The notes below the pieces were generated by a model that made no database searches, was not told the DNA's origin, and saw only the letters and a list, made by a program, of their open reading frames with translations. A stretch of 64,000 nucleotides of DNA from an uncultured Thermoplasmata archaeon (GTDB taxonomy: Archaea; Thermoplasmatota; Thermoplasmata; Halarchaeoplasmatales; Halarchaeoplasmataceae), in contig CAZPCW010000001.1 in the NCBI GenBank assembly GCA_964585175.1, forward strand, positions 12,314 through 76,313. Direction: 5' to 3'. How positions within the stretch are numbered: the stretch's first letter is position 1; each line of letters opens with the position of its first letter. Position numbers and translations under genes: made by a program. Below are positions 25,811 through 45,908 of the stretch, piece by piece.

Positions 25811-27460
25811 ATGTCTCCCGTACAGCAGCATGAAAGTTCATTGGCGCAAGCTAGAAAGAGGAACCCGCACCTTAATGAATATATCAAGGGGCTACAAAGT
25901 AGAGGCATCGACGTTCCTGTATTGAAAAATAGGGTGGATAGAGATCTAAAAGATCAAAACGAAGTGAATATAATATATCCTATAGGTGATCCTATCTTCG
26001 TCCACGTTTATGGGACCGAGAACAGTGGATACAATTACAACGGGATAGAACCTGAATTAGATACTGAAAGCAGGGAACTCCTTCAAGAAATACAGGATTT
26101 TATCTTTGAAAAAGCTGCTTTTGAAGACGTAAAAGACGATCCAGAAAAATTAAAAGATCTTATCGAAGAATCCGTTGAGGAATTCGTCGATAAGGAAACC
26201 AGTGGACTATTATTCAGCAGGGATATACCAAAAGAGAGGGTGAGAAGAGTAAAATACAGACTGATGAGAGATCTGGCTGATCTAGGACCTCTTGAACCTC
26301 TTATGAGAGATCCTTATATAGAAGATATTTACGTAGTTGGTTTAGAACCTATCAAACTCATCCATAAGATATTCGATGAGATGAAGACTAATCTACAATT
26401 CGAGACAATGGAGAAGCTCGATGAATATCTAGTCAATCTAGGGGATAGAGTCGACGTGGATGTGAACGCTTCGGATGCTGTATTTGACACTGCAATGCCA
26501 GATGGATCTAGACTTAATATAATATATCCCGAAGATATTTCGATAAAAGGACCCAGTTTTACGATAAGAAAGTTCGAAGAGACACCTCTTACAATGCCAC
26601 AGATAATTAAGTGGAATACATTCAGTCCGAGGATGGGTGCATACATGTGGCTAGCCATGGAGCATGGCATGTCTGTCATCGTTTCCGGAGAGACAGCTTC
26701 GGGTAAAACTACTACTTTTAACTCAATGTTACCATTCATTCCTCATAACAATAAGGTTTACTCGGTTGAAGATACGGCAGAAGTCCAACCCCCTCAAGAG
26801 ACTTGGCAGCAGATGATAATCAAAGAATCGGAAGACGAGCAGATATCTGTCGAATACTTTGACCTTATAAAGGCCGCTATGAGGAGTAGACCAGAGGCTC
26901 TCCTTGTGGGAGAGATCAGAGGTGAAGAAGGTAATATCGCTTTCCAGGCCATGCAGACCGGTGTACCCGTCATCTCCACTTTCCACGCAGCTTCAGTCCA
27001 CAAGTTAATACAGAGGATGAGTGGAGAACCGATAAACGTTCCTTTACACTTTTTCCCGAATCTTGATTTCGTCGTTATACAGCAGGCGGTTTATGTTGGT
27101 GGTGAATTTCTGAGAAGGATGTTAGCTCTAACCGAGATAACCGGTTACCTGAGAGAAGAAGACAGCGTAGAGGTCCGAGAGATATTTGGATGGGATCCTG
27201 TCAGTGACAGTTTCGACTTTAGAGGAAAATTTAACAGTCAGCTTTTAGAAGAAAAGATAGCTCCAAGGATGGGTTTTGATGATAAAAGAGACATATATTT
27301 GGAGCTGGAAAAAAGAGCCCAGATAATCAAAAACATGATCAGAGAAGATATATTGGGTTATGATGAGGTAATAGAGACACTAAGAAAATGGCATAGAGGA
27401 GGTATGGAATCTCTGCCTCCCCGTTTAAGAGTAAAAGATTCCCAGGTTAGCATAAAATAA
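25811..27460 (+). CDS. arlI: ArlI (FlaI) archaellum motor ATPase (type II/IV secretion ATPase family)
   Basis: Walker A motif SGETASGKTTTFNSMLPFIP, Asp box, His box (STFHAAS) and an N-terminal FlaI-specific domain. It lies immediately upstream of arlJ. Confidence 0.85.
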   Translation: MSPVQQHESSLAQARKRNPHLNEYIKGLQSRGIDVPVLKNRVDRDLKDQNEVNIIYPIGDPIFVHVYGTENSGYNYNGIEPELDTESRELLQEIQDFIFEKAAFEDVKDDPEKLKDLIEESVEEFVDKETSGLLFSRDIPKERVRRVKYRLMRDLADLGPLEPLMRDPYIEDIYVVGLEPIKLIHKIFDEMKTNLQFETMEKLDEYLVNLGDRVDVDVNASDAVFDTAMPDGSRLNIIYPEDISIKGPSFTIRKFEETPLTMPQIIKWNTFSPRMGAYMWLAMEHGMSVIVSGETASGKTTTFNSMLPFIPHNNKVYSVEDTAEVQPPQETWQQMIIKESEDEQISVEYFDLIKAAMRSRPEALLVGEIRGEEGNIAFQAMQTGVPVISTFHAASVHKLIQRMSGEPINVPLHFFPNLDFVVIQQAVYVGGEFLRRMLALTEITGYLREEDSVEVREIFGWDPVSDSFDFRGKFNSQLLEEKIAPRMGFDDKRDIYLELEKRAQIIKNMIREDILGYDEVIETLRKWHRGGMESLPPRLRVKDSQVSIK

Positions 27461-29140: not shown

Positions 29141-30751
29141 ATGGAGAGGAAGTTAAAAGCCCATATGAAAAAAAATCCCTTTTTAGGGAGCTACATAAAA
29201 AGGGTCAGAAGAGAAGTAGGTGTGCCAAAATTTAGAGAGGAATGTCCAGATTGGGGAGACGTGAGGGATGATTTCAATATAATGTATCCCATAACAGATC
29301 TAGTTTATATCCATTGTTACGTTTCCGAGGACGAAGAGAAGCATTATATCGCGGTAGAACCCCCACTAAATGAAGAAAGGCAGGAAAAACTTGAGAAGGC
29401 TAAGAAGTATATCTATAGAGAGGCGGATTACGAGAAGGAGATCGAATACAGAGAAGAATTGAGGGAAATGATCCATGATATTTTTGACAGGATCGTGGGT
29501 GAAGGAGGAGGTTTCTTTTCGAAACTCCAAGGTAGGACATTAGACGTAGATGATGATGAGATACCTATCTTGAAATATTATGTTGTGAGAGACCTAGTAG
29601 ATTATGGAGTTCTTGATCCACTGATCAACGATCCTAATATCGAAGATATAAATTGTGTGGGAACAGAGCCTCTTACTATTATTCACCAAACATTTGGAAG
29701 GATAAAAACGAACATCTCATTTGACTCTGAATTTGAATTAGATGAATATCTGAAAAGACTAAGCCAAAGAATAGGCAGTCCGGTCGGTGAAGCTCATCCC
29801 ATCGTGGATACGGCTATGCCGGACGGATCTAGAATAAACATCGTTTATCCAGAAGATGTTTCTACCAAAGGCAGATCATTCACGATACGAAAATTTCCAG
29901 ATGATCCTATCTCTATAACCAATCTTATTGAATGGAATACTTTATCCCCAGAATTGGCTGGATATATATGGCTCTGTTTGGAAAACTCCATGTCCATCTT
30001 CATATGCGGAGAAACAGCTTCGGGTAAAACAACTACTCTGAACGCTTTTCTCCCTTTCATACACCTTGATAGTAAACTTTACAGCGTGGAAGACACCCCT
30101 GAAGTGCAGCCACCACACGATAATTGGCAGCAACTCATAGTCAGAGAAGAGGGAGCAGAAGATGAGCAGGTCGGTCAGTTCGATCTTTTGAGAGCAGCCC
30201 TCCGTTCAAGGCCAGATTATATAGTTCCCAGTGAGATAAGAGGAGAAGAAGGTAGAGTGGCGTTTCAGGGCATGCAGACAGGCCATCCTGTCATATCGAC
30301 TTTCCATGCCGACTCCATACACAGGATGATCCAGCGACTAACCGGCGAGCCTATCAGGATCCCGATAACTTTCATAGATAATCTGAACGTAGCGGTGATA
30401 CAAGACAGCTTTAGAACCAAAGGGGCCGTTTTGAGAAGAGTAACTGAGGTTGGAGAGATCATGGGTTACTCTGAAGAACAGGATGGAGTGATGATGAGGG
30501 TGGTATTCAAAAGAAATGAACAGGAAGATGAGCTGGAATTCGAAGGTATGTACAACAGCTTTATTCTAGAGGATAAGATCGCACAGATCCAAGGTTACGA
30601 CGATACTAGAAAAATCTACGATGTGATGGAAGAAAGAGCCCAGTTCTTAGAAGATCTCACGAGAAAAGGTATCTACGATTACGATAAGGTGGCGCAGCTG
30701 ATAGACGAATACAGGAAAGGCGGTAGAGAAAATCTTTCAATAAGGCTTTAA
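29141..30751 (+). CDS. Second ArlI/FlaI-like secretion-family ATPase (paralog)
   Basis: Walker A motif CGETASGKTTTLNAFLPFI, His box STFHADS, and the same domain order as ArlI (about 45% identity by eye: MYPITDLVYIHCY against IYPIGDPIFVHVY). It sits 7 nt after arlJ with no adjacent second TadC-like gene. Confidence 0.7.
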   Translation: MERKLKAHMKKNPFLGSYIKRVRREVGVPKFREECPDWGDVRDDFNIMYPITDLVYIHCYVSEDEEKHYIAVEPPLNEERQEKLEKAKKYIYREADYEKEIEYREELREMIHDIFDRIVGEGGGFFSKLQGRTLDVDDDEIPILKYYVVRDLVDYGVLDPLINDPNIEDINCVGTEPLTIIHQTFGRIKTNISFDSEFELDEYLKRLSQRIGSPVGEAHPIVDTAMPDGSRINIVYPEDVSTKGRSFTIRKFPDDPISITNLIEWNTLSPELAGYIWLCLENSMSIFICGETASGKTTTLNAFLPFIHLDSKLYSVEDTPEVQPPHDNWQQLIVREEGAEDEQVGQFDLLRAALRSRPDYIVPSEIRGEEGRVAFQGMQTGHPVISTFHADSIHRMIQRLTGEPIRIPITFIDNLNVAVIQDSFRTKGAVLRRVTEVGEIMGYSEEQDGVMMRVVFKRNEQEDELEFEGMYNSFILEDKIAQIQGYDDTRKIYDVMEERAQFLEDLTRKGIYDYDKVAQLIDEYRKGGRENLSIRL

Positions 30752-31670: not shown

Positions 31671-32192
31671 TCACCAGCTGCCTTCGTGTATCAATTCTTC
31701 TGCACTCATCTTTTCAGGAGAAGTTGGTTCTTCTGTCGGATACCCGACAGGTATCATTGTTACCGGTCTAACTCCCGCAGGAATTTTAAGCTGATCCGCC
31801 ACTTTTTCTTCCTCAAAGGCCCCTACCCAAACTGCGGCATAACCTTTGTCGACTACGGCTAAGAGCATATTTTCTACCGCAGCGCTAGCGTCCTGTATAG
31901 AATACAGTTCTCTTCCTCTATCTCCATATCTTTCCGCAGATCTTTCTTTATTGGCACAAACCACTATCACCCATGCAGCTTCGCCGATAAACGATTGCCC
32001 GTGAGCATTTTTTACTAACTTTTGCTTTTCTTTCTCATCTCCAACGAGAATAAAATCTCTAGCCTGAAGATTACCAGCGGAAGGGGCCATATGTCCCAGC
32101 TCGATGATCTCTTCGATATCCTCTTTAGGAATATCTTTTTCTTTGAAACTCCTCACGCTTCGTCTCTTCTTGACCACTTCCCTAAACTCCAT
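31671..32192 (-). CDS. Nitroreductase-family NAD(P)H-flavin oxidoreductase
   Basis: RRSVRSFKEKDIPKEDIEEIIELGHMAPSAGNLQARDFILV. The likely start is MEFREV at 32190-32192, which abuts the flavodoxin stop; the track start at 32240 is over-extended. Confidence 0.7.
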   Translation of the reverse strand: MEFREVVKKRRSVRSFKEKDIPKEDIEEIIELGHMAPSAGNLQARDFILVGDEKEKQKLVKNAHGQSFIGEAAWVIVVCANKERSAERYGDRGRELYSIQDASAAVENMLLAVVDKGYAAVWVGAFEEEKVADQLKIPAGVRPVTMIPVGYPTEEPTSPEKMSAEELIHEGSW

Positions 32193-32194
32193 TT

Positions 32195-32686
32195 CTAGAC
32201 CTCCAAACCCGATATTTTTTCCATAAATTCGGCCATCCATTCACCGTAATAACGGCATTGTTTGAGTTCGTTTTCGTCGGGATCACCGATCACTACGGGA
32301 CCGTAGTGATCTCCTTTAGGCATGCCTTTTACTATCATCCCGTGTATGATCAAGCTTTCTAGAAGCGCCATGATAGTGGTTTCGTTTCCTCCGGCGGTAT
32401 TAGCGCTAGAGGTGAAGGCGCCACCTACGATTCCATCAAGATCTCCGTGATGAGTTATACTTTCATCCAAAAATTCCTTCATTTCAGCACTGGGAAGTCC
32501 GTAATAAGTGGGAGATCCGAGTATAATACAGTCGTATTCAGGCAGAGACTCTACGTCAGCTTCTTCGACTGACTTCAAATCTATCTCAATAGAGGCGTCG
32601 CTTTCTTCCGCACCCTCAACTATCTTTTCGGCCATTTCTTCAGTCGTACCACCCTTCGAATAATAACAGACTAACATCTTCGACAT
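32195..32686 (-). CDS. Flavodoxin-like FMN-binding protein
   Basis: MSKMLVCYYSKGGTTEEMAEKIVEGAEE matches the flavodoxin phosphate-binding loop (S/T-x-T-G-x-T). 163 aa. Confidence 0.65.
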   Translation of the reverse strand: MSKMLVCYYSKGGTTEEMAEKIVEGAEESDASIEIDLKSVEEADVESLPEYDCIILGSPTYYGLPSAEMKEFLDESITHHGDLDGIVGGAFTSSANTAGGNETTIMALLESLIIHGMIVKGMPKGDHYGPVVIGDPDENELKQCRYYGEWMAEFMEKISGLEV

Positions 32687-32744: not shown

Positions 32745-33740
32745 TCACTCTTCTCTTTTTTTCTCCTCAAGTTCACAAAGTAGATCAACTATTTCCTCGG
32801 ATTTTTCCTTTTCTAGGGAGACCTCTTCATCATAAAACCCAGATTTTTTTTCTCCCACAAATTGACCGATATTAGTCAATTTTAGGATTATATCCTCTGT
32901 TTTGATCACCTTTTTTTCTTCCAACCTCGTGATAATGCTTTTAAACCTCTCCAAATCCAGGTTGAGGGTCTCAGCTATCTTAGTAGCCAAAAATTGGTTA
33001 CCGCTCTCAAGAGAATTCAAAATTTTTACGACTTTCAATTCCTTTTGATTTAAAGTAGGGATCTTTTGTTCTTCTCTCAAGAAGCAACTCTCAAAGTACT
33101 GTAAAATCATCGAGACTGAAGTATTGACGGGATATATCACATCCACTATCACTTCATCTTCGTTCTCGTTTTCCCCGTCTTCGTAATATATTTTTAAAGA
33201 GTTTTTACCCTTCAGTTCCTCAGTAGCCACGAACAAAATCTTCTTTCGGGGGATCGCTAAAAGTCTATTGTCTTCTCCAAGTATCTGAACGTGCTCTGTA
33301 CCCTTACCTCTATATTTTCCTTCTTTCCATTCTTTATCCTTATTTACCTTTTCTCCGACTTGATATTTTGTTATGTAATTAATCTTGGCACCCGACATTA
33401 TTTGCCTTAAAATAGTTCTTTTAAGCTTTCTTTTAGAAGAAGTTTTTATCAACGCTAGATATCCGCCGTCGGAGGTCATGAAATTAAATGTCAATACGTT
33501 GTGTTCCCTAGCTTTCAAAAAGTTTATCTGACGATCGAGGTAAAAAATTGAGTTCAATTCGATCCTTTTGGTCTCTTCCTTCGTTTCATATATAAGTTTA
33601 TCTGGGGTGAGATATATCTTGGAAGGTGTCCATTCTTTTTCTTTGTAAAAATCCTCTTCAACTTCATTGATAGTTCCCGCAGGTATGATCGCTTGTACTT
33701 CCTCCTCAAACTGAACATTTCTTCTACCTATATTAAACAC
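32745..33740 (-). CDS. CheF-like protein (archaea-specific che/archaellum adaptor family, DUF439-like), paralog A
   Basis: Co-linear homology with the two tandem genes at 38957 and 39880: AIIPAG..., (K)IYLT/YLVYK, LIKTS.K..LKRTIL, ...KDKEW.KG, IYYED/IRYEKDDEE, and a C-terminal winged-helix-like region. It is co-operonic with a PAS-HK, a REC and a CheB-methylesterase domain protein. Confidence 0.5.
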   Translation of the reverse strand: MFNIGRRNVQFEEEVQAIIPAGTINEVEEDFYKEKEWTPSKIYLTPDKLIYETKEETKRIELNSIFYLDRQINFLKAREHNVLTFNFMTSDGGYLALIKTSSKRKLKRTILRQIMSGAKINYITKYQVGEKVNKDKEWKEGKYRGKGTEHVQILGEDNRLLAIPRKKILFVATEELKGKNSLKIYYEDGENENEDEVIVDVIYPVNTSVSMILQYFESCFLREEQKIPTLNQKELKVVKILNSLESGNQFLATKIAETLNLDLERFKSIITRLEEKKVIKTEDIILKLTNIGQFVGEKKSGFYDEEVSLEKEKSEEIVDLLCELEEKKREE

Positions 33741-33747
33741 CTCAGAA

Positions 33748-34320
33748 TCACTTCTTAAACAATTCTATAAGTTTAGCTCTGATACCTTCGGGTTTTAAGA
33801 TAAACTCCACACTGCCGGTATCTATAGCACCCTCGGGCATATGTGATATTATCGCGGAAGAGACTTTTTGTGCTATAGTGGTGCCTCCAATGCTGTCTAT
33901 ATGCTCAATACCTTCGATACCGTCATGCCCTATCCCGCTCAGTAAGATGCCTACATACTCATGATCCTTTTTTATATCTAAACTTTTCATCACCCCGTCT
34001 ATAGAAGGACAAGCAAAACTTTCTTTAGGACATTTGGAAAAAGAAATTTTAGAGTTATCTTTTATATCGAGTTGCTTTTTCGAAGGTGCAATATAGATCG
34101 TTCCGCTTGACAAGCGTTCGTCCTCCGCAAGTTTCACTTCCATTTTCGTGAGACTGTTGATCCTTTTTACCATACCTTCGTTTAGCTGTTTAGACATGTG
34201 CTGAACGATTATTATAGCCGCGTCTAACTCGGGCAGATGGGAGAATATAACTTTTAAAGCGTTGGGTCCCCCAGTCCCGGAACCTATAACTACTATATTT
34301 TTGCACAATTCAGACGACAT
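33748..34320 (-). CDS. Standalone CheB-type methylesterase catalytic domain (no receiver domain)
   Basis: VVIGSGTGGPNALKVIFSHLPELDAAIIIVQHMSKQL, IYIAP, CPSIDGVM, LSGIGHDGIEGIEHIDSIGGTTIAQ. The Ser-His-Asp triad positions are present. 190 aa. Confidence 0.75.
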   Translation of the reverse strand: MSSELCKNIVVIGSGTGGPNALKVIFSHLPELDAAIIIVQHMSKQLNEGMVKRINSLTKMEVKLAEDERLSSGTIYIAPSKKQLDIKDNSKISFSKCPKESFACPSIDGVMKSLDIKKDHEYVGILLSGIGHDGIEGIEHIDSIGGTTIAQKVSSAIISHMPEGAIDTGSVEFILKPEGIRAKLIELFKK

Positions 34321-34327
34321 ATTTTCA

Positions 34328-34702
34328 TTATTCCATATATTTCCAATATTCCGAGATCTTTTCTTTTATTTCTTCACTAGTTACTGGTTTCCGGATATAA
34401 TCTATAACGTACTTTTGAAGATCCTTTCTATTTTCAGCCGGTGAATCCTTTGCCGTGAGCATCGATATCACAATATTCTGCATGTCAAATCTGTCCGCGA
34501 TCCCTCGAACCGTCTCCCATCCGTCCATATCGGGCATCATCACGTCCATCAATATTATACCTTCAAAACCTTCGTCTAAAGTATCCAAACATTCTTTTCC
34601 GCTCTCTACCGTTATCACTTCTAAATCCTCGTCTTCCAATATCCTCTCTAAAGTATAGAGGAGGTGAGGATCATCATCCACGATCATGATTTTTCTATCC
34701 AT
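34328..34702 (-). CDS. Single-domain response regulator (REC)
   Basis: KIMIVDDDPHLL...GIILMDVMMPDMDGWETV...YIRKPV is a CheY-like receiver fold with the phospho-acceptor Asp in MDVMMP. Its stop is adjacent to the HK start. Confidence 0.8.
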   Translation of the reverse strand: MDRKIMIVDDDPHLLYTLERILEDEDLEVITVESGKECLDTLDEGFEGIILMDVMMPDMDGWETVRGIADRFDMQNIVISMLTAKDSPAENRKDLQKYVIDYIRKPVTSEEIKEKISEYWKYME

Positions 34703-36163
34703 CTAAAGCATCTCCTTCTGTTCTTTGGGCAGTTCTATACAGAAGACAGTCCCTTTTCCATCTTCAGATCTTTCTGCCCATATATTGCCATTGTGGTTTT
34801 CTATTATATATTTTGAGATTGGTAAACCCAAACCGGTGGATTCTAGTTTATGTTTAGTTTTTCCGGTAGTATAAAAGTACTTAAAGATATTCTCTAACTC
34901 TTCTTCTTCCAAATTTCCACCCGTATCTCGGAACTTGATGATAACCGAATCCTCTTTTTCCTCCGCACCGATAAACATTTTACCTTCTTTAGATAAATGT
35001 TCAAGAGAGTTTTTAGCTAAATTATCGAATACTTCAAAAAGACCCATCTTGTCAACTTCTATCCGGGTATCTAACTCGATTTCATTCCTAAATTCTATAT
35101 TCCACTTTTCTTCTATCTCATCCAAATTTCGCCCCTTGAAGTTCGACAACCAATCTTCAACAAGTTCTTTAACTTGAACAGATTGCAGACCCGTTTTTCT
35201 ACCGCTTTTACTGTATTCAGCTATCTTCAATATGTGTTCAAGCAATTCTTTCAGGTAAAGCGCATTTTTTTCACAGATTTCTAGGTCTTTTTGGATGATT
35301 TCATCGTCAAGCTTTTTGCCAACTTTGTCTTTCACCATAGGAATCAAATTGACCAATGGACTCACCGGTGTTTTGAGGTCATGACTCAATCTATGTATTA
35401 TATTTTCTCTCTCTTCTAAAAGATCTTTCAATCTTTGTTCAGCTTTTTTTCTTTCCGTCACGTCTTCCGCAAATCCTAAATATCGATCTTTCGATATTTT
35501 TACCGCATTTACTATCCAATACCCTTTAGACCCGCCTTTTCTTTTGTAAGGGAGTTCTATTTTCATCTTTCCTCTTTCGAGAAGTTTATCAAAAGACTCT
35601 TTCGCCTTCCCTCGAGCGTTAGAAGTAGTTATATCTGATATATTCATTTCTAGCATCTCTTTTTCTGAATATCCAGTCATCTCACAGGCGCTTTCATTGA
35701 TTTCGAGATAGTCACCCTTCGAATCGACTACGAAGACGCCGCTCGGTGCATTTTCTACATAACTTCGAAATTTTTCTTCACTTTTCTTTAATTCCTCCTC
35801 GGCTTTTTTTCTCTCAGTTATATCTCTAGCTACGCTCAGTACAACTTTTTCATCTTTGAATTTAATCAGTGAGGAATTTATTTCGACAGGTATCTTCCTT
35901 CCATCCTTTGTTTCGTGTTCAGCCTTAAAAGTGAGATGTCCTCTTTTCTTTATTTCCTCCAATCTCCCCTCTACCAAGGGTTTGCTCTCTTCAGAATCTA
36001 ATTCATAAGGCGTCATCTCCATAAATTCATCTCTACTGTATCCATATCTTTCTACGGCGGCTCTATTTACCTTTATGAATCCACCATCTAGATTATGGAC
36101 GAAAACGGCGTCCTTCATCCCGTCCAAGATATGTTCGTATTTTTTTTCATCATCAAAAGACAT
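34703..36163 (-). CDS. PAS/PAC sensor histidine kinase
   Basis: Two PAS-like segments (AVFVHNLDGGFIKVNRAAVERYGYSRDEF...; GVFVVDSKGDYLEINESACEMTGYSEKEM), H-box IIHRLSHDLKTPVSP, and HATPase_c G-boxes (FRDTGGNLEEEELENIF, TGLGLPISKYIIENHNGNIWAE). Confidence 0.8.
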   Translation of the reverse strand: MSFDDEKKYEHILDGMKDAVFVHNLDGGFIKVNRAAVERYGYSRDEFMEMTPYELDSEESKPLVEGRLEEIKKRGHLTFKAEHETKDGRKIPVEINSSLIKFKDEKVVLSVARDITERKKAEEELKKSEEKFRSYVENAPSGVFVVDSKGDYLEINESACEMTGYSEKEMLEMNISDITTSNARGKAKESFDKLLERGKMKIELPYKRKGGSKGYWIVNAVKISKDRYLGFAEDVTERKKAEQRLKDLLEERENIIHRLSHDLKTPVSPLVNLIPMVKDKVGKKLDDEIIQKDLEICEKNALYLKELLEHILKIAEYSKSGRKTGLQSVQVKELVEDWLSNFKGRNLDEIEEKWNIEFRNEIELDTRIEVDKMGLFEVFDNLAKNSLEHLSKEGKMFIGAEEKEDSVIIKFRDTGGNLEEEELENIFKYFYTTGKTKHKLESTGLGLPISKYIIENHNGNIWAERSEDGKGTVFCIELPKEQKEML

Positions 36164-36302
36164 GATTAGCTTCCCCCGGCCTTTAATTCTTTATCTCTAC
36201 TCTTCTTTATAAAGGTAACTTTTTCATAAACAGGGGTTAGTAAATTTCAGTTTCTGAAAAGTTACAGGAACTTTTTTTTAGTTTCTCTCTTATGACCGTT
36301 TA

Positions 36303-38873
36303 ATGAGTTCCTTGGACGAGTTGATCTCAAATCTTGGCCGATTCTGGAAAAGAAAAAATGCTTTCCAAGAACTAGTAAAGAAAGGAAAGAAAGATCCAGA
36401 AGAGGTTGTTCCTAAACTCCTGAGAAGATTAGAAAGTAATGGCGGTAAGGTTGAGAAGAGAATCAAAAAAGTGTATGAAGAAATAGCGAAGGATATCGAT
36501 CTTGTTCCCATACTCTACAGTGTTCCAACTGTTGAGAATCTATGGACTTTTACAGAAAGTGATAATTCTATTTCCTGCGTATGTGCAGGGGAATTGGATG
36601 ATGATAATATCATGGCGGTTGGGTCTAGATCGGGAACAGTCTACATCTTGGATAAGGAAGGAGAGGAGAAGTGGAAAAAAGAGGATATAACAAGCGGTAT
36701 CAGCAGTCTCTTGGTAGATGAACTTGGAGACAAAAAGGTCGTTATAGCAGGATCGGGAAAGGCTTTCGGCAGTTCAGAGGAAAATAACGTTTACGTATGG
36801 AGCGAAAAGGGGGGATCTATTTGGACTGGAATTCAACCAGAATCTTGGATCACCGATTTAAAGACCGGGAGATTGAAGGGGAGGAATGTTGTAGTAGCGG
36901 GATGCGGAGGTTTGGAGGTCAGGTCCACCAATCTGATCGTATGGGATGAAGAAGGAAATCTCTTATGGGCTAGAGATGAACCAAATTCATGGATAAGCGG
37001 AGTAAGGATCACGGAACTAAATGGAAAAAAAGCCGTTATAGGTAGTTCGGGAGATAACAATATTTACGGGTGGGACGCTACTGGAAGTTTGGTATGGGAG
37101 GGGACGGAGTCAGAAGAATCTTTAGTCGGTCTAACAGTAGGCGATTTAGGAGGAAAAGAGGGTATTATAAGCATATCTTCAAATGTTTATGCATGGGACA
37201 AGAAAAAAAATCTCTTGTGGAAGAGTACTCATCCCGATTCTTGGCTCAGATGTGTTGATCTTGGTGACTTCAATGGTAAAAAGATGATAGTCGCAGGTTC
37301 AGAAGAAGGAATCGTGTACGGATGGGATGGAAAAGGTGATCTTGTGTTCAAAGACGAATCCCTAAACGGTGAGATCAATACGATCAAGATCGGAGAGATC
37401 GACGGGAAAAATGTCATAGTCGCCGGAACGAAAGTTGGCAGCCTTTACATTTGGAAAGAAGAAAGCTCTTTTCCTTCGGTATCTAACGTACCAAGAGACG
37501 CCATAAATGAGATCGCTTTTGGAAATTTTGAAGATCAAAATGTCATGATTTCAGGATCTGAAGATAAAAAAGTCTATGTCTTCAGGTATGAACTTACAAC
37601 TTTAGATGATCTTATTTCAAATACTGAAGAAGTAATACCAGTTCCCGATCTGAAAAGAAAATATAAAAAATTGAAAAAATCGGTAGATACCGATACGCCG
37701 GGTAAAGACAAAGAGATATACAATAGATTTCTCAAGCTCGGCGAAAAGATCAAAAATAGACAGGACAAAGGAGATGAGATAATAAGTGACATGAAGACCA
37801 TACAGGAGCACATCGAGAAGTTTAGAGATAAAGGAATAGATACAAGCGGTTTAACAGATAGATTTGAAAGATCAAAAATATATCTGAAAGATGGAAAGAT
37901 TAGGAATTGTGAAAATTATCTTGACGATCTATTGAAGGATTTATCCGATATCCAGAAAAGATTAGACAAGAAGAAAGAAAAAAACAAAAAGATAAGGAAT
38001 TGGATAGAAAAACTTGAAGTAGATATCGACACTGAGTCGATCCCAAAAGAGGCTATAGAGAATCTTGAACCGATCTATTCCAAATATGAAGAGATCTTAA
38101 AAGAACTCATAATAGAGGAAAATATAGATGAATTAAGAGAAAAGATACAGAAATTTGACAAAGTAACCGATAAGTACCATGAAGTGTCGGCCCAACATCG
38201 TAATGCTTTCAAAGTTTCAAAAAATTTAAACGAATTCGTGACTGAAAGATTGAAAAACCTGAAATCCGATCGTCAAAAACTGAAAAGATTGAAGCGTAAA
38301 AAAGAACTAGCTTTGAAAAATATACAGGACTCTACAAGCAGTGTCATCCTACAGTCACGATCACAGAAAACGTGGATCTCACCTGATGACCTATTAAATA
38401 GGATTAGAGAAATAGAAGATAAACTAAAAAATACTTTAGAAGATTTAATGTTGGATATAGTAAAAAACACTGTGGATATAAAAATGAAGATAGGATACGA
38501 AAACCAAGAATTCTTCATTCCAAAAGGCTATCCCTCAAAAGAAAAAGTAAATTTTGGATTGAGAAAGATTCGAGAAGAAATAAAGGAGATAGATGACGAG
38601 TCTTTAGAGAAAAGTATAGATTTCAATAAATTGAACCAAAAAATCGGCAATTCCGATCTAAAAACCTCTTCAAAGTTGATGAATGATATCGCTCATGAGA
38701 TATTTAGATACAAGGCTATTCTTAGTTTAGAAGAAACTCTGAAAAGTGAAGGAAACAGTAAAAGTTTGTATGAAAATTTTGAAATTCCAGAGGACTTTAA
38801 AACTAATATTCTAGCAAGGATAAAAAGAAAGAAAAAAGAAGTGAAAGCGAAAATGATCGAAATCCAAAAATAG
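36303..38873 (+). CDS. Beta-propeller (PQQ/WD-like repeats) protein with a long C-terminal Lys/Glu-rich coiled coil
   Basis: The N-terminal 430 aa or so is tandem 40-aa blades with conserved (V/I)YxWD...G.LxW and interleaved G(K/R)xVVIAGS (NVYVWSEKGGSIW, LIVWDEEGNLLW, NIYGWDATGSLVW, VYAWDKKKNLLW, IVYGWDGKGDLVF). The C-terminal 420 aa is K/E/I-rich with heptad character. It sits between the HK operon and the cheF paralogs. Confidence 0.5.
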   Translation: MSSLDELISNLGRFWKRKNAFQELVKKGKKDPEEVVPKLLRRLESNGGKVEKRIKKVYEEIAKDIDLVPILYSVPTVENLWTFTESDNSISCVCAGELDDDNIMAVGSRSGTVYILDKEGEEKWKKEDITSGISSLLVDELGDKKVVIAGSGKAFGSSEENNVYVWSEKGGSIWTGIQPESWITDLKTGRLKGRNVVVAGCGGLEVRSTNLIVWDEEGNLLWARDEPNSWISGVRITELNGKKAVIGSSGDNNIYGWDATGSLVWEGTESEESLVGLTVGDLGGKEGIISISSNVYAWDKKKNLLWKSTHPDSWLRCVDLGDFNGKKMIVAGSEEGIVYGWDGKGDLVFKDESLNGEINTIKIGEIDGKNVIVAGTKVGSLYIWKEESSFPSVSNVPRDAINEIAFGNFEDQNVMISGSEDKKVYVFRYELTTLDDLISNTEEVIPVPDLKRKYKKLKKSVDTDTPGKDKEIYNRFLKLGEKIKNRQDKGDEIISDMKTIQEHIEKFRDKGIDTSGLTDRFERSKIYLKDGKIRNCENYLDDLLKDLSDIQKRLDKKKEKNKKIRNWIEKLEVDIDTESIPKEAIENLEPIYSKYEEILKELIIEENIDELREKIQKFDKVTDKYHEVSAQHRNAFKVSKNLNEFVTERLKNLKSDRQKLKRLKRKKELALKNIQDSTSSVILQSRSQKTWISPDDLLNRIREIEDKLKNTLEDLMLDIVKNTVDIKMKIGYENQEFFIPKGYPSKEKVNFGLRKIREEIKEIDDESLEKSIDFNKLNQKIGNSDLKTSSKLMNDIAHEIFRYKAILSLEETLKSEGNSKSLYENFEIPEDFKTNILARIKRKKKEVKAKMIEIQK

Positions 38874-38956
38874 ATTATGAATATCTAATCGTTGGGATTA
38901 AATAGTAAATGAATCATGATATATATTGTAATTGATAGATGATGAGGTATAACTAG

Positions 38957-39826
38957 ATGGGAAAACAAAACGTACTGTATAACCAAGTAGAAAAGGCGAT
39001 AATACCCGCCGCAGAAGGTGATCGATACTTTAGAAATAAAGACTGGATCAAAACAACTGTTGCAGTAACTGGAGAATATCTAGTCTATAAAAATTCGGAA
39101 GGCGAAGGTTCGATTCCATTGAATGAAATCTACTATATGGATAGAAAAGTGGGCTACTCGAAAGCTCAAGGGGGAGCTGTTCTCAATTTCAATTATAAGC
39201 AGAATGGAGAAACTTATATGGGGTTGATAAAGACGTCCCATAAAGATTACTTGAAGAGAACTATACTTATTGCAACTATTTCGAATATTCCCATCTATTT
39301 TATTTCTCCCTACCAGAGCGGAGGAAGGATTCATACCGATAAAGAATGGAAAAAAGGAATTTTTCAGGTGACTAAGAACAAGGTCATAATTAAATCTCCA
39401 AACGGTTCGGTGGTTAATGAAATACCCGAGAGAAAAATATTCGGTGAAAGTGAGGATAAAATTAAGGGATACGATGCCATAAAGATCAGATACGAGAAAG
39501 ATGACGAGGAATTAGCTGATCTGATGTTCTCGCCGGAAGTTTCATTGGCTATACTGAGCGATTTCTTTTCTGAAGTTCTGATGAAGAAAAAGGGTAAAAA
39601 AAGAAAACTTTCAGAAGATGAAAAAGAAATCATGATGGCTATCCAGACGGGGATCAATTCTTCCACCGAAATAGCCGAATTGATGGAGATGGATCACGAA
39701 GATGTATTAAACTCTATAGACACGCTAAAGGATAAGAACGTGATAAATATAGTCGGAAGAGAAAAAATAGTCGAGTTAAGTTCAGAAGGAAAACAGGCTT
39801 TAGATGATTCAGGCGAATCGATGTGA
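38957..39826 (+). CDS. CheF-like protein (DUF439-like), paralog B
   Basis: Same family as 32745 and 39880. Directly upstream of cheW-cheR and facing cheA-cheB. Confidence 0.55.
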   Translation: MGKQNVLYNQVEKAIIPAAEGDRYFRNKDWIKTTVAVTGEYLVYKNSEGEGSIPLNEIYYMDRKVGYSKAQGGAVLNFNYKQNGETYMGLIKTSHKDYLKRTILIATISNIPIYFISPYQSGGRIHTDKEWKKGIFQVTKNKVIIKSPNGSVVNEIPERKIFGESEDKIKGYDAIKIRYEKDDEELADLMFSPEVSLAILSDFFSEVLMKKKGKKRKLSEDEKEIMMAIQTGINSSTEIAELMEMDHEDVLNSIDTLKDKNVINIVGREKIVELSSEGKQALDDSGESM

Positions 39827-39879
39827 GATTATATTTATGAAAAGTTTCATTATGAATACCAAAATGAAGAGGGAAAAAA

Positions 39880-40743
39880 ATGGCTCAAGATCAATTGTAT
39901 AACAATGTTGACGAAGCGATAATACCAGCTGGACAAGGAGGAAAGATCAAGGGGAATTTAAGCTGGGAGAAGACAAGGATAGTGATCACCAGTAAATACT
40001 TGATATACAAAGGGATGAATTCTGAGGGTTACATACCACTCAACAATATATTTAATATGGATAAAAAATTAGATTTTCAAAAAGGAAAGGGAAAAAATAT
40101 ACTTAACTTCTTTTATACAAAAGACGAAAAAAACTATTTCGGTCTGATCAGATCTAATCAGAAGAGTTATCTAAAAAGGAGTGTTTTGGTCGCATCGATC
40201 TCGAGTATACCCATCTACTACATATCTCCTTATCGGGTTGGGGGAAGGATTAACACTAGTAAAGAATGGGAACGAGGTATTTTGGAAATAAATCCAAGAT
40301 CTATGAAGATAAAAAATGTGGGAGAAGAATTAGTAAACGAATTATCCGAGGATGATATATATAGAATAGATTCTGACAAGGTAAAAGGTCATGATGCGGT
40401 AAAGATAAGCTACGAGAAAAACGAAGAAGAATTCACCGATCTCCTTTATTCTCCGGGTATTTCTCTCTCGATCCTTTACGATTATTTCGAAGAAATTTTG
40501 ATAGGAAAAGACGTTACGGATATAACTATCTCTGAACTGGAAAAGGAGATGATCTTGGCGATCGAAAGTGGTATCAACTCGTCTAAAGAACTCTCGGATC
40601 TGATCGAAAGTGACCATGAAAAGGTCTTAAATAGCTTGAAAAGATTGAAGGAAAAAGGGTTAATAGAAGAGATAGGCATAGATAAGATTGTTGATCTCAC
40701 ATCTCAAGGTAAAAAGAAGATAGGCGATTCGATAGAAAGGTGA
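39880..40743 (+). CDS. CheF-like protein (DUF439-like), paralog C
   Basis: About 45% identical to paralog B along the whole length. C-terminal wHTH-like block EKEMILAIESGINSSKELSDLIESDHEKVLNSLKRLKEKGLI. Confidence 0.55.
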   Translation: MAQDQLYNNVDEAIIPAGQGGKIKGNLSWEKTRIVITSKYLIYKGMNSEGYIPLNNIFNMDKKLDFQKGKGKNILNFFYTKDEKNYFGLIRSNQKSYLKRSVLVASISSIPIYYISPYRVGGRINTSKEWERGILEINPRSMKIKNVGEELVNELSEDDIYRIDSDKVKGHDAVKISYEKNEEEFTDLLYSPGISLSILYDYFEEILIGKDVTDITISELEKEMILAIESGINSSKELSDLIESDHEKVLNSLKRLKEKGLIEEIGIDKIVDLTSQGKKKIGDSIER

Positions 40744-40747: not shown

Positions 40748-41293
40748 ATGGAAAGAGAAGATATGGATATAGACGACACTAAAAAAGAATTAGAAGAAGA
40801 AGTCAAAGAAAAGATAGAGGGGATGAAAGGAATCGATAGAGAAAATGAACTCCTCTTTACTATTTTTGAACTAAGCGGCGAAGATTATGGCGTCTCAGTG
40901 GACGAGATGGATGAAATAGTTAAGGATGTAGATACTTTCAATATTCCCGGTGCTCCAGATTATGTGTTGGGTGCTGCAAAATTAAGAGGAGATGTGGTTC
41001 CCGTTATTGATCTTAAAAAAGTTCTAGGAATAGGTGAAACCAGAGAAGGATGGAAGGAGGTACTATTAATAACTCATGAGGATGAAAAATACGCCATGCC
41101 AGTAGATAAGTTAAAAGATATGATCACACCCGAAAGAGAACAGTTAGTCGATCCCACTTCTATCACGAATTTAAGGGACAAGATGCTCAAATGGATAATC
41201 AGCCTAGAGGATAATAAGAGTATACGAGTAATAGACATGGATGAATTGATAAGCAAAAAAACTGAAGACCTTGATATTAAAGAGAAAAGTTAG
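40748..41293 (+). CDS. cheW: Chemotaxis coupling protein CheW
   Basis: LLFTIFELSGEDYGVSVDEMDEIVKDVDTFNIPGAPDYVLGAAKLRGDVVPVIDLKKVLG is a CheW-like domain. 181 aa. Confidence 0.85.
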   Translation: MEREDMDIDDTKKELEEEVKEKIEGMKGIDRENELLFTIFELSGEDYGVSVDEMDEIVKDVDTFNIPGAPDYVLGAAKLRGDVVPVIDLKKVLGIGETREGWKEVLLITHEDEKYAMPVDKLKDMITPEREQLVDPTSITNLRDKMLKWIISLEDNKSIRVIDMDELISKKTEDLDIKEKS

Positions 41294-41308: not shown

Positions 41309-42130
41309 ATGCCAGAACTAGAAGAAAATACTGATTCTAAGGGATTTAAAAGACTTAGAAAAGAAGTATCCCGAAAAATAGGCGTAGATTATGATAATTA
41401 CTCTAAGCGGCACTTGAGAAGACGTTTTCACGCAAGGATGAGAGTCGTAGAAACTCCAAAATTTGAGGGATATCTCGACTATATCAAAAAACACGAAGAA
41501 GAGATCGAAGAGCTTAGAGATCTCCTTACGGTGAACGTGACTAGATTTAAAAGAGATGAGGAAGTCTGGGAAATTATAGAGGATGAACTTATACCCGAAT
41601 TAATCGAAAATAAGGGTACAGGTGTTTTAGATAGTTTTGATGTCTGGTCAGCTGGATGTGCGACCGGAGAAGAACCATATTCGCTTGCTATCAGTTATTT
41701 AAAAAATAATCCTCCTGCCAATCTCTCTTTTTCCGTCACCGCTACAGATTTGGATAATGAAGCCCTAGATTTTGCGAGAAACGGCGAATATCCCAGTAAA
41801 TCGATCAAAAACTTATCCGAATCAGAAAAAAGAAAGTTTTTTAAAGATAAAAAGGGCGGTTGGCAGGTAAAAGGCAAGGTCAAAGAATTGGTGGAGTTCA
41901 AGGAAAAAGACATCTTCAAAACCTCCTTTAAAAAGAAATTCGATCTTATACTCTGTAGAAATCTGATGATTTACTTCAACAACGAGGCTAAAAGCAAATT
42001 GATGGAAAGGCTCGTAGAAAGTTTAAGCAAAGGAGGCTATCTTGTTATAGGTATGTCTGAAAATTTAAGATCACCAGCTAAGGACAAGGTTGAATCCTAC
42101 AATTTAAAAAGAAGGGTGTTTAAGAGGTAG
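41309..42130 (+). CDS. cheR: Chemotaxis protein methyltransferase CheR
   Basis: SAM-binding core FDVWSAGCATGEEPYSLAIS, a CheR N-terminal helical domain, and LILCRNLMIYF. Confidence 0.85.
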   Translation: MPELEENTDSKGFKRLRKEVSRKIGVDYDNYSKRHLRRRFHARMRVVETPKFEGYLDYIKKHEEEIEELRDLLTVNVTRFKRDEEVWEIIEDELIPELIENKGTGVLDSFDVWSAGCATGEEPYSLAISYLKNNPPANLSFSVTATDLDNEALDFARNGEYPSKSIKNLSESEKRKFFKDKKGGWQVKGKVKELVEFKEKDIFKTSFKKKFDLILCRNLMIYFNNEAKSKLMERLVESLSKGGYLVIGMSENLRSPAKDKVESYNLKRRVFKR

Positions 42131-44096
42131 TCTTTATCCAGTGAAGCGTGTCGAGTATCATCGCTATAGTACCGTCTCCAAGTATCGTTGCCCCCATGAA
42201 TCCTCCGAGACCCTGAAGATGTTCCGGCAGCGGTTTTATAACTATCTCCTTTTCGGTTAGGACGTCGTCTATAACTAGACCGGCGGTCTTTCCTTCTTTG
42301 GAAACGATCGAGACTTTTAGCTTTTCTTTTTCCTCTTTTATAGAACTCGCAGGATATCCTTCAAACTCCTCTTGCAGATAGATAAGAGGTAAATATTCAT
42401 CCCTGATTTTCACGAAATCATTTCCTTTGATTTTTTCTATCTGCTCCAAATCGACCTGAGCAGTTTCAACTACGTCTTCTAAAGGTACAGCGTAAGTACC
42501 GTCTCCGACCTTAATCAGGAATGCCTGAACTATTGCCACCGAAGGAGGTAATGTCAATCTGATAGTTGTACCTTCATCGATCTCTGACTCAACGTTTACT
42601 TCTCCACCAAGAGAATCCATGGTTTTCTTAACCACTTCCATGCCAACTCCTCTTCCAGAGACTTTAGTAACCTCGTCTTTGGTGGAGAAATGGGAATTGA
42701 ATATAAACATGTATAAATCTTCATCTGATATTTCTTCAGCTTCTTCTTCGTCTATAAGATCATTATCGATGGCCTTTTCCTTGATCTTCTCTTTATTCAA
42801 TCCTCGACCGTCATCGCTTACTTCTATTACAACGTTCTCCTCTTTTTGGGTCGCGGCTAGTTTGATCTTACCTTTTTTTGGCTTTCCCTTCTTTTCTCTT
42901 TCTTCTACAGGCTCAATACCATGATCTATAGCGTTCCTCAAAAGATGAACTAAAGGATCGGTTATTCGGTCGAGAATGGTTCTATCCAGCTCTATTTCTT
43001 CACCCTGCATTTCGAAATCGACCTTTTTATTATTCTCCTTAGCAAGATCTCTCACCATCCTCGGGAAGCGTCTAAAGACGGTCTTGACTTCCGTCATCTT
43101 CATGTCTAGGACCGATTCTCTCAACTCGCTGGATATCCTGTCTATTCTCCCGGTCACATTAGAAAGTCTATCCGATTCCAAAGAGCGAGAAAGATCTTCC
43201 AAAGTACCTTTTGAAATAACTAATTCACTTACTAGGTTCATTATATGTTCGATATCTTCTAGGTCTACCTTTATCTTGTCCGATGTCGAAATCTTTTTTT
43301 CCTTCTTTTTCTTTTTTTCCTTTTTTTCTTCGGTTTCTTCTTCCTTTTCTGGTTTTTCTACCCCCTTCTTTTGCTTTAGGAGACCTTCTCCAGCTCCTCT
43401 TCTTACTTCGATTGTTAACCCGGCTGTTTTATCTAAATCTTTTTCTTCTATCTCTTCTTCAGTCACGATATAAAACTGGTTATGCTGTGGATCTACTTCA
43501 TCAGGATCGGGATAGAACATTTCACATTCAAAATCTAACTTTTCTTGGACCTCCATGCCTCTAACAGCGGGCAGCTTTTCCTCTTGAGAAACTTCCAATA
43601 TACCTAAGGAGATCTCTTCCTCTGCTTTTTCTTTTAATTTCTCTTGCACTTCGTCTGGGACATCTATCTCTTCTATTTCTTCAGACTCTTCGACTTCAAC
43701 CTCTTCTTCAGTGCTCCCCTCTTCCTTTGTAACTTCACCTCCTTCTATTAGCTCGTTGAGCTCATTTACCAAATGGCCATAATCTTCGTCTTCTCCGCTA
43801 GCGAGTATTTCTATGGTGTCAACACATTCAAAAAGAAGATCGAAAAGCTCTTCCTCTACCTTACCCCCTTCGCCCTTCAACTTATCAAAAAGTTCCTCCA
43901 TCCTATGACTTATCTTCTGGATACCGTCATAACCCATTGTGCCCGCCATACCCTTCAAAGTATGGCTGGCTCTATAGATTTCTTCTATCAATTCGATATC
44001 CTTCGGATCATCTTCCAATGCCAAAAGATTCTCATTCATCTTTTCAATTTGTTCTCTTGTCTCTTCTTCAAACATTTCTTGATATTCTTCACTCAT
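42120..44096 (-). CDS. cheA: Chemotaxis histidine kinase CheA
   Basis: Hpt P1 with H-box ASHTLKGMAGTMG, a dimerisation domain, HATPase_c (VIEVSDDGRGLNKEKI...STKDEVTKVSGRGVGMEVVKK) and a C-terminal CheW-like P5 (DGTYAVPLEDVVE...AGLVIDDVLTEKEIVIKPL). Confidence 0.9.
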   Translation of the reverse strand: MSEEYQEMFEEETREQIEKMNENLLALEDDPKDIELIEEIYRASHTLKGMAGTMGYDGIQKISHRMEELFDKLKGEGGKVEEELFDLLFECVDTIEILASGEDEDYGHLVNELNELIEGGEVTKEEGSTEEEVEVEESEEIEEIDVPDEVQEKLKEKAEEEISLGILEVSQEEKLPAVRGMEVQEKLDFECEMFYPDPDEVDPQHNQFYIVTEEEIEEKDLDKTAGLTIEVRRGAGEGLLKQKKGVEKPEKEEETEEKKEKKKKKEKKISTSDKIKVDLEDIEHIMNLVSELVISKGTLEDLSRSLESDRLSNVTGRIDRISSELRESVLDMKMTEVKTVFRRFPRMVRDLAKENNKKVDFEMQGEEIELDRTILDRITDPLVHLLRNAIDHGIEPVEEREKKGKPKKGKIKLAATQKEENVVIEVSDDGRGLNKEKIKEKAIDNDLIDEEEAEEISDEDLYMFIFNSHFSTKDEVTKVSGRGVGMEVVKKTMDSLGGEVNVESEIDEGTTIRLTLPPSVAIVQAFLIKVGDGTYAVPLEDVVETAQVDLEQIEKIKGNDFVKIRDEYLPLIYLQEEFEGYPASSIKEEKEKLKVSIVSKEGKTAGLVIDDVLTEKEIVIKPLPEHLQGLGGFMGATILGDGTIAMILDTLHWIKTTS

Positions 44097-45145
44097 TATT
44101 TCTCCTCCATAAACATATCAACCAATTTCTTTCCAATTTCAGAAGGTGTTCCTTCAAAATCAGGAGTTGTTTTATTTTTCGCAGATTTAGGCATCCCATA
44201 TACAACGGAACTCTCTTCATCTTGGAGGGCAAGAAAACCATCGTTATCTTTTACTATTTTAGCTCCGGTAGCTCCATCCTTTCCCATTCCAGTCAAAACT
44301 ACCCCAATAACTTTATCCCGATATACTTCGGCGGCGGATTGGAAAAGATAATCCGCAGAGGGTCTAACGCCGTGTAATTTGGGTTTTTTCTTGAGGACTA
44401 TAGATTTCTCTTCATTCCATTCTCTTACCATTCCATGATAGTCCGAAGGGATTATGTAGATATTATTAGGTTCGATATTATCATGATCTTTAGCCTCCCT
44501 AACTGGGAGCTCAAGTTTTGAATTCAATGTAGAAGCTAGATATTCGGTAAAATCAGGGGGCATATGCTGGACTACAACGATAGGAACAGGGAAATTAGAG
44601 GGTAGATTAGATAGTAAGCTGTCTAAAGCTCTCGTCCCGCCTGTGGATGAAGCTATAGTGATAATATTATCTTTAAATTTTTCTGGGACGAATTCCTTTT
44701 CTATCGGCTTTCCCTTTTCCAACTCCAAAGATTCCATATCGGTCTTTCCAGCATTGATAACTTTTTGAGTGATCTCGTCTGATTTCTTCCTGATATCCAT
44801 CGATAAAGAACCAGATGTCTTTGGGATGAAATCCACAGCTCCCGCTTCTAGAGCCTTCACTGACATCCCAGTCTTCTTATCTTCCATCGCGGAAACTATA
44901 ACGACTGGTGTAGGATTGTCGGACATGATTTTTTTTACGGCGGTGAGCCCGTCCATCACGGGCATCTCGATGTCCATTAATATGACATCAGGATCTTTCT
45001 CTCTGTTAAGTTCTATAGCTTCTTCACCGTTACCACCAGTGCCTACTACTTCTATCTGTTCATTCTCTTCAAGTATGTCTGTTAATATGGTAACCATGAA
45101 ATTCGAATCATCTACTACGACAGCGCTGATTTTACTTGAAGTCAT
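44096..45145 (-). CDS. cheB: Chemotaxis methylesterase CheB (REC plus methylesterase)
   Basis: N-terminal receiver (VVVDDSNFMV...DVILMDIEMPVMDGL) and C-terminal esterase (IASSTGGTRALDSLLSNLP, VVVQHMPPDF, LTGMGKDGATG). Its stop overlaps the cheA start. Confidence 0.9.
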   Translation of the reverse strand: MTSSKISAVVVDDSNFMVTILTDILEENEQIEVVGTGGNGEEAIELNREKDPDVILMDIEMPVMDGLTAVKKIMSDNPTPVVIVSAMEDKKTGMSVKALEAGAVDFIPKTSGSLSMDIRKKSDEITQKVINAGKTDMESLELEKGKPIEKEFVPEKFKDNIITIASSTGGTRALDSLLSNLPSNFPVPIVVVQHMPPDFTEYLASTLNSKLELPVREAKDHDNIEPNNIYIIPSDYHGMVREWNEEKSIVLKKKPKLHGVRPSADYLFQSAAEVYRDKVIGVVLTGMGKDGATGAKIVKDNDGFLALQDEESSVVYGMPKSAKNKTTPDFEGTPSEIGKKLVDMFMEEK

Positions 45146-45545: not shown

Positions 45546-45908
45546 TTATTCCTCAAGGACTTTTCCTATCTCTTCTAAAACACTATCCTTTTTAAACGGC
45601 TTAACTATATAACCATCGGCTCCTCTCTTTATTGCTTCCGTGACTTTCTCATGCTGGTCCACAGACGTACACATGATCACTTTCTGAGTTTCGTCATGGT
45701 TTTTTATCTCCGATAATGCCTCAAATCCGTCCATCTCGGGCATAACGACGTCGAGAGTCACGAGATCGGGATCTAGTTCTTTTACCTTTTCGACAGCCTC
45801 CTTTCCATTCTCAGCCTCGTCAGCTACGTTGTATTTAACTGAGAGGATCTTTCTAAGCATCTTTCTCATGAACTTAGTATCATCCACGATCAACACTCTT
45901 TTAGCCAT
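45546..45908 (-). CDS. cheY: Chemotaxis response regulator CheY
   Basis: KRVLIVDDTKFMRKMLRKIL...DLVTLDVVMPEMDGFEALSEIK...ADGYIVKPF; 120 aa single REC. Confidence 0.85.
   Translation of the reverse strand: MAKRVLIVDDTKFMRKMLRKILSVKYNVADEAENGKEAVEKVKELDPDLVTLDVVMPEMDGFEALSEIKNHDETQKVIMCTSVDQHEKVTEAIKRGADGYIVKPFKKDSVLEEIGKVLEE

Follow-up and report, generated by a model that had tools for sequence, protein, structure and literature searches.

In a stretch of 64,000 nucleotides (nt) from an uncultured Thermoplasmata archaeon (GenBank assembly GCA_964585175.1, contig CAZPCW010000001.1, positions 12,314 to 76,313), referred to here as the window, three paralogous genes encode proteins that are very likely adaptors of the CheF family. 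To our knowledge, CheF is the only known link from chemotaxis signalling to the archaellum, and the literature treats it as one adaptor that serves one CheY. Two of the genes, cheF-B (38957..39826, plus strand, 289 amino acids [aa]) and cheF-C (39880..40743, plus strand, 287 aa), are short-tailed paralogs, the stop codon of cheF-C lying 4 nt ahead of cheW. The other, cheF-A (32745..33740, minus strand, 331 aa, GTG start), is a long-tailed paralog. The three are not equivalent: cheF-A lies on the opposite strand in a separate, divergent block, and its product carries a 36-aa C-terminal extension that is absent from CheF-B and CheF-C. An initial annotation of the window had predicted these three open reading frames (ORFs) at exactly these coordinates and proposed an elaborated switch complex, itself inferred. 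Instead, the data point to two functional CheF classes, CheF-B and CheF-C with the che operon and CheF-A with two-component genes of its own. The explanation that we favour overall, with a confidence somewhat above even, is that CheF-B and CheF-C are adaptors for phosphorylated CheY (CheY-P) and that CheF-A is a specialised adaptor for a separate two-component input.

Membership of the CheF family, which the initial annotation had proposed, is borne out by profile comparison. The gathering score of PF04283 (CheF-arch, formerly DUF439; 218 profile positions) is 25 bits; CheF-A, CheF-B and CheF-C score 30.4, 33.4 and 36.5 bits, respectively, with most of the profile covered, and the precomputed Pfam annotation of the database concurs. 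The missing DUF439 match that had been named as counting against the assignment thus did not occur. All of the shared motifs described before are seen in the three-way alignment, where they read, for A, B and C in turn, AIIPAG, AIIPAA and AIIPAG; LIKTS..LKRTIL, LIKTS..LKRTIL and LIRSN..LKRSVL; KDKEWKEG, TDKEWKKG and TSKEWERG; and KIYYEDG, KIRYEKD and KISYEKN. In agreement with the claimed paralogy, CheF-B and CheF-C are 48% identical across 284 aa (E 1e-99), and CheF-A and CheF-C are 29% identical (E 7e-33). Comparison of the A-type profile with the B/C-type profile by hhalign gives a probability of 100% (E 7.9e-52) over columns 7-292, an alignment that takes in the C-terminal domain (CTD) up to the β16 strand. 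Judged from these alignments, the similarity among the three is far beyond chance. The gene location is also that of CheF: cheF-A lies between the arl operon and the che genes, and cheF-B and cheF-C lie directly upstream of cheW-cheR. The gene map therefore agrees with the earlier placement of the trio between che and arl genes, and the same che/arl-linked location holds in relatives.

CheF proteins of published structure contain two PH-like domains, a small helical bundle and a CTD consisting of α5-α7, the long strand β16 and the terminal helix α8; the CTD dimerises CheF and binds two CheY-P molecules (PMC9126983). In the published model, the N-terminal PH-like domains dock on the ArlC/D/E switch proteins. 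The AlphaFold (AF2) model of CheF-C, built on an alignment of seven orthologs (predicted local distance difference test [pLDDT] score 83.3), shows the same architecture as Pyrococcus horikoshii CheF (7ovp), namely a pair of PH-like domains, a small bundle of helices and an elongated CTD. The best Foldseek match of this model in the PDB is 7ovp_A (E 1.6e-10; 18% identity in the structural alignment), and the next matches are tandem-PH proteins, namely Rtt106, FACT subunits and centaurin. At the sequence level, CheF-C residues 199-282 align to 7ovp_A residues 248-330 (E 1.5e-5), and the tail also matches 7od9_C, the "C-terminal domain of CheF from Methanococcus maripaludis". The CheF-C CTD (residues 215-287; 40522..40740, plus strand) is composed of three helices, a β hairpin equivalent to β16 and the terminal helix α8, with helices at residues 219-229, 235-242 and 246-258, strands at 262-265 and 270-273, and a last helix at 275-285 in the model. 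From its identity to CheF-C, CheF-B probably shares this fold. In CheF-A, the winged-helix-like CTD core (residues 228-295; 32856..33059, minus strand) aligns to the B/C CTD up to β16. The initial annotation had described winged-helix-like tails in all three proteins: the shape stands, but the tail as an add-on or as a sign of DNA binding does not, because the alignments to 7ovp and 7od9 and the CheF-C model identify it as the ordinary CheF CTD. The tail is therefore neither a novelty nor evidence for DNA binding.

The paralogs differ in how this domain ends. CheF-B and CheF-C have the canonical end, in which α5-α7, β16 and α8 are followed by the stop codon, 10-11 residues past the G-K of β16. 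CheF-A does not end at α8. Instead, it continues with an acidic, predicted helical extension of 36 aa (residues 296-331; 32748..32855, minus strand) that has a net charge of -7 and the core S-E-E-I-V-D-L-L; CheF-A is therefore classed as a variant of the CheF family and not as a canonical CheF. An extension of 30-36 aa past the canonical end is conserved in CheF-A and its five orthologs, and all six of these A-type proteins retain the core motif [EK]I..[LI]L. From composition, 3.9 occurrences of this motif would be expected in the 18,097 residues of window proteins, but the one in the CheF-A extension is the only one. In M. maripaludis CheF, the terminal carboxylate of F348 extends into the CheY active site, and in Haloferax volcanii, fusion of green fluorescent protein (GFP) to the CheF C-terminus specifically blocks the interaction with CheY-P (PMC9126983). 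Given these two observations, a natural extension at this position would be expected to change the canonical CheY-binding mode of CheF-A. The core E-I-V-D-L-L also has the same E-I-x-x-L-L spacing as the N-terminal "EIDALL" peptide by which bacterial FliM/FliY binds CheY-P (quoted in PMC9126983). As this apparent likeness covers six residues of an amphipathic helix in unrelated machineries (archaellum versus flagellum), it is taken as a lead only.

cheF-A is the final gene of a compact block on the minus strand, in which a PAS histidine kinase gene is followed by the genes for a receiver (REC), a CheB-like protein (CheB') and CheF-A, with 0, 7 and 7 nt between successive genes in the window. 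The kinase (34703..36163, 486 aa) is cytoplasmic and contains two PAS domains, HisKA and HATPase_c; its stop codon abuts the start codon of the stand-alone receiver (34328..34702, 124 aa, PF00072). CheB' (33748..34320, 190 aa; PF01339, E 8e-48) is a receiver-less, CheB methylesterase-like protein. The block is found in all five genomes with an A-type CheF (among them L004/L010, L007/L011, L019 and L020) as far as the contigs reach, and CheF-A orthologs at 76, 58, 57, 54 and 44% identity sit in the same gene order. The PAS kinase upstream of REC-CheB'-CheF-A is kept in L004, L007 and, as a fragment, L019. In L007, the block is intact although the upstream region is not a che operon. Flavodoxin and nitroreductase genes follow the block in four of the five genomes.

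The receiver of the block retains the phospho-acceptor residues D9, D10, D53, T83 and K105. In a PDB search, it matched no archaeal CheY at E <= 1e-8, the best match being the generic REC 3cg4 (E 2e-32), and it is 29% identical to the CheY encoded in the window. By these comparisons, it is a generic stand-alone REC and not a CheY ortholog. In CheB', the nucleophilic Ser is replaced by Gly ("GSGTGG" aligned to "GSSTGG" of Thermotoga maritima CheB, 3sft). The change is present in all five orthologs, so that the Ser-His-Asp triad is reduced to His and Asp, and CheB' is probably a pseudo-esterase. The conserved block, the intact non-CheY receiver and the conserved extension with its core motif together argue for CheF-A as a specialised adaptor. 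That it serves the co-encoded two-component pair in particular is a tentative proposal, which we hold at less than even likelihood.

The neighbourhood of CheF-B and CheF-C is a different one. Their genes belong to a plus-strand unit that begins with a gene for an 856-aa protein (36303..38873) and continues with cheF-B, cheF-C, cheW (40748..41293; PF01584, E 5e-25) and cheR (41309..42130; PF01739 and PF03705). Convergent with this unit, on the minus strand, are cheA (42120..44096; Hpt, H-kinase_dim, HATPase_c and CheW domains), cheB (44096..45145) and cheY (45546..45908). CheB here is canonical, with REC and methylesterase domains and the nucleophilic Ser kept ("ASSTGG"). CheY is of the archaeal type, its best PDB matches being P. 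horikoshii CheY (6er7, E 1.5e-37), M. maripaludis CheY (6ekg) and 7od9_B, which is the CheY chain of the complex of CheY with the CheF CTD; it is the candidate partner of the CheF-B and CheF-C CTDs. L004 and L021 repeat the order cheF-B, cheF-C, cheW, cheR, which L012 also has, but with a permease gene inserted after cheF-B and before cheF-C. The co-orientation with cheW-cheR, the adjacency of cheA-cheB-cheY, the archaeal CheY, the acidic CTDs (net charge -9 in CheF-B and -4 in CheF-C), the canonical end and the type-conserved C-termini described below all argue for CheF-B and CheF-C as canonical adaptors, and we consider it likely that both are adaptors for CheY-P. Genes for methyl-accepting chemotaxis proteins (MCP), CheC and CheD were not found in the che/arl region or elsewhere in the window.

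On the motor side, the candidate docking partner of the CheF PH domains is an 1147-aa protein (20015..23458, plus strand) encoded at the head of arlF/G/H/I/J. The initial annotation had called it a giant ArlCDE-like protein. The ArlC part of this description holds, as the protein matches FlaC_arch (PF05377) with 40 bits (gathering score, 27.8 bits); for the ArlD/E part, no domain was detected, and DUF835 (PF05763, 88.6 bits) and bactofilin (PF04519, 43.5 bits) domains are found instead. Relatives of this protein have 1090 aa in L004 and, as called, 590 aa in L007. No relatives of it were found in the PDB, and no literature linking DUF835 to archaella was found. The arl genes of the window encode ArlF/G-like proteins, ArlH, ArlI, ArlJ and a second ArlI-like ATPase.

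Relatives of the three CheF proteins were sought in several collections and are very few. A search of 5.8 billion proteins gave four and seven matches, and the A-type profile, run exhaustively with HMMER, matched only 10 cluster representatives among 1.84 billion proteins. The genome-contig scan with CheF-A as a single query had no match, and the scan with an alignment as the query found two loci in metagenome-assembled genomes (MAGs) of Thermoplasmata; the metagenome-contig scan with the A-type alignment (A2) had no match. The contigs of the relatives come from MAGs labelled "uncultured Thermoplasmata archaeon" or "Thermoplasmatota archaeon". In a distance tree of all recovered CheF sequences, two superclades are resolved: a short-tailed one with the C type, the B type, P0011 and P0018-20, and a long-tailed one with the A type, the P0014 type, P0016 and P0017. 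B-type C-termini all read GSGE[SA]M and C-type C-termini all read [DE]S[IL]ER, each 10-11 residues past β16, whereas the long-tailed proteins, all of which have the extension, run on with 30-55 residues that are charged and predicted to be helical. At least three MAGs have kept the A+B+C trio: L001 and L004 each carry all three genes, and GCA_964632835.1 has A on L019 and B and C on L021. The trio is therefore a conserved complement and not the result of a recent local duplication.

Two further observations concern CheF genes outside the trio. The P0014/P0024 loci (L015-L018) encode proteins with 27-28% identity to CheF-A that lie below Pfam detection in the precomputed annotation; there, the cheF gene stands alone in a metabolic neighbourhood, between a succinyl-CoA-ligase-like gene and trmO, and a gene for a REC-GAF-PAS protein is located two genes upstream. 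In L014 (254..3164), which is from another metagenome, the gene for the short-tailed CheF P0011 (281 aa) is directly downstream of one for a histidine kinase that is not CheA and that has a solute-binding-protein domain. This makes it the second cheF gene seen next to that of a classical sensor kinase. A 61-aa ORF fragment right after P0011 is CheC-like by eye only.

Binding partners and effects on the motor are what we infer from these observations, and the following scheme is proposed as the most likely mechanism. CheA would phosphorylate CheY, and CheY-P would bind the CTD dimer of CheF-B and/or CheF-C, which might each form homodimers or possibly pair with one another in a B/C heterodimer. 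Their PH domains would dock on the ArlC-domain motor protein and thereby change rotation, as in the published model. In parallel, the cytoplasmic PAS kinase would phosphorylate the stand-alone receiver, which might then engage a CheF-A dimer, possibly via the extension. Receiver-bound CheF-A could bias or gate archaellum rotation independently of the chemoreceptor array, and this route would supply the same motor with a chemoreceptor-independent input, possibly one of redox or energy state. The fullest form of the proposal, in which the PAS kinase, the receiver and CheF-A constitute a dedicated two-component pathway into the archaellum switch and the E-I-x-x-L-L helix is a receiver-binding element convergent with EIDALL of FliM, is in our view less likely than not.

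Several points weigh against this scheme. The assignment of CheF-A to the family comes from a modest PF04283 score and from homology to CheF-B and CheF-C; 7ovp was not reached by CheF-A alone or by the A-type profile in the PDB sequence search, and the AlphaFold model of CheF-A, built on an alignment of four sequences, has a pLDDT of only 48.7, too poor for a fold search. The pairing of CheF-A with the receiver is drawn solely from conserved gene order, and in the distant long-tailed clade of the P0014 type the kinase-receiver pair is not adjacent, so that the tail and the two-component linkage are separable. On the motor side, the 1147-aa protein has no Arch_fla_DE match even at E <= 10, and no gene with an ArlD/E domain was found within the window; canonical docking of CheF is therefore assumed. 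In addition, an extra CheF can be close to redundant. Reviews describe a duplicated cheF (cheF2) from only a few haloarchaea, and Halobacterium salinarum, in which CheF1 and CheF2 both bind CheY, is only mildly affected when CheF2 is lost (PMC7289035). By this precedent, all three CheF proteins might serve the single canonical CheY and differ quantitatively, through redundancy, expression conditions or mixed dimers, while the kinase, receiver and CheB-like genes act elsewhere, in receptor adaptation or as a phosphate sink, for instance, with cheF-A doing no more than sharing a transcript with them. The CheB-like gene does connect the block to chemoreceptor biology, and the CTD core of CheF-A aligns well with that of CheF-B and CheF-C. 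Nevertheless, six A-type orthologs extend the C-terminus exactly where CheY-P needs it free, the block persists in L007 with the che operon elsewhere, and the conservation of A, B and C as separate types with type-specific C-termini argues against simple redundancy. We regard a single CheY for all three as rather unlikely.

The properties of the CheF-A core bear on another explanation, namely that CheF-A is a DNA-binding regulator, for example of arl or che genes, that responds to the adjacent two-component system. Its winged-helix core is mildly basic (+2, isoelectric point [pI] 9.2), as opposed to the acidic CTDs of CheF-B and CheF-C, and it weakly resembles Sso10a (E 8e-5), HTH_45 (E 0.0014) and, with the A-type profile, LrpA (E 0.003); these points also count against CheF-A as an adaptor. 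All matches of the CheF proteins to winged helix-turn-helix families are far below the family thresholds, however (HTH_45, 19 versus 25.5 bits; Sso10a, 22.6 versus 60; cas_HTH, 18.9 versus 60.2), and the homology of this region is to the CheF CTD, a domain of the same shape that binds CheY-P and not DNA. As the PF04283 body is retained and the extension is strongly acidic as well, a role in DNA binding seems highly improbable. Hardly better is the prospect that the receiver and CheB' form a "split CheB" acting on receptors, with CheF-A tethering the pair to the motor or the pole. The succession of a REC gene and a gene for a CheB catalytic domain mirrors the domain order of CheB, and the block is conserved in five genomes; yet the receiver does not resemble the REC domain of CheB in PDB searches, the loss of the nucleophile from every ortholog makes esterase activity doubtful, and a complete canonical CheB is already present in the window. 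This explanation, too, is very unlikely. The preferred reading therefore stays that of CheY-P adaptors with the che operon and a specialised adaptor with its own two-component genes.

Compared with the euryarchaeal CheF (CheF1; PF04283; P. horikoshii 7ovp, and 7od9), the window proteins share the Pfam match, the location beside cheW/R/A/B/Y and the arl operon and, as seen for CheF-C, the tandem PH domains and the winged-helix-shaped CTD, and CheF-B and CheF-C also share the end shortly after the α8 equivalent. They differ in being very divergent (only 5-11 bits above the PF04283 threshold), in the shorter CheF-B and CheF-C (287-289 aa against 340) and in their host, since Thermoplasmata lie outside the classical che-bearing euryarchaeal groups. 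Haloarchaeal CheF2 (H. salinarum OE2404R and H. volcanii CheF2) is likewise an extra CheF paralog and thus a precedent both for duplication and for two copies that bind CheY. However, it is reported as a recent duplicate in few haloarchaea, whereas the three types here are kept across a Thermoplasmata lineage and CheF-A has both the C-terminal extension and kinase and receiver genes of its own nearby. With bacterial auxiliary CheY-like inputs to the flagellar switch, the proposed scheme shares the idea of a receiver that acts on the motor switch from outside the main CheA-CheY path.

The CheF family itself was already known, and its known structural biology explains the tail. What is new is the CheF trio in a Thermoplasmata lineage, the long-tailed subtype and the linkage of this subtype to two-component genes of its own. 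In a comparison of 352 archaeal genomes in 2022, Thermoplasmatota were stated to lack a chemotaxis system (PMC9680633); the present locus extends chemotaxis and archaellum switching to Thermoplasmata. As a CheF with a modified CheY-binding end and with kinase and receiver genes of its own, CheF-A offers a testable case for several inputs converging on the archaeal motor, and multiple inputs via CheF would be an archaeal counterpart of the auxiliary CheY-like regulators of bacterial flagella. If the CheF-A pathway were true, it would be the first signalling input to archaellar rotation outside CheA/CheY, and the CheF proteins would be the first paralogs to serve as input-specific adaptors. The divergent sequences should also be useful for finding the truly constrained surfaces of the CTD and the PH domains.

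Other features of the region are as follows. The 856-aa protein that heads the cheF-B/C unit has an N-terminal half with sub-threshold matches to β-propellers and a charged, long coiled-coil C-terminal half that includes a weak FliS-like match. Its gene lies 83 nt upstream of cheF-B; L004 has a relative of 871 aa, and no such gene is beside cheF-B in L012 or L021. Downstream of the cheF-A block, the nitroreductase ORF (31671..32240, minus strand) and the flavodoxin ORF (32195..32686, minus strand) overlap by 46 nt. In an identical contig, the nitroreductase is called at 173 aa instead of 189, and its true start is probably an internal ATG. A scan for sigma-70 promoters and terminators gave background numbers (25 versus 24.8 expected and 6 versus 5.9 expected, respectively), and such a scan is in any case not applicable to archaea.

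Eight archaellin (Arch_flagellin) genes are located on both strands at 12249..19952, one of them apparently truncated (14314..14769, 151 aa), and a VapB-antitoxin-like ORF (13553..14047) lies among them. The protein in the arlF position (23443..24651, plus strand) has 402 aa, which is unusually long for ArlF, and its archaellin-type match is sub-threshold (27 versus 29.5 bits); it is kept in L004 and L007. arlI is at 25811..27460, and the second T2SSE/ArlI-like ATPase (29141..30751, plus strand, 536 aa) is encoded directly after arlJ, at the same place as in L004 and L007. The window proteome is acidic (median pI 4.79 for 28 proteins), which is only a hint of a saline habitat. Downstream of the che region, beside DUF58/DUF4129 genes, an 815-aa STAND-type NTPase (AAA_16) with many TPR repeats is encoded at 50109..52556 on the minus strand.

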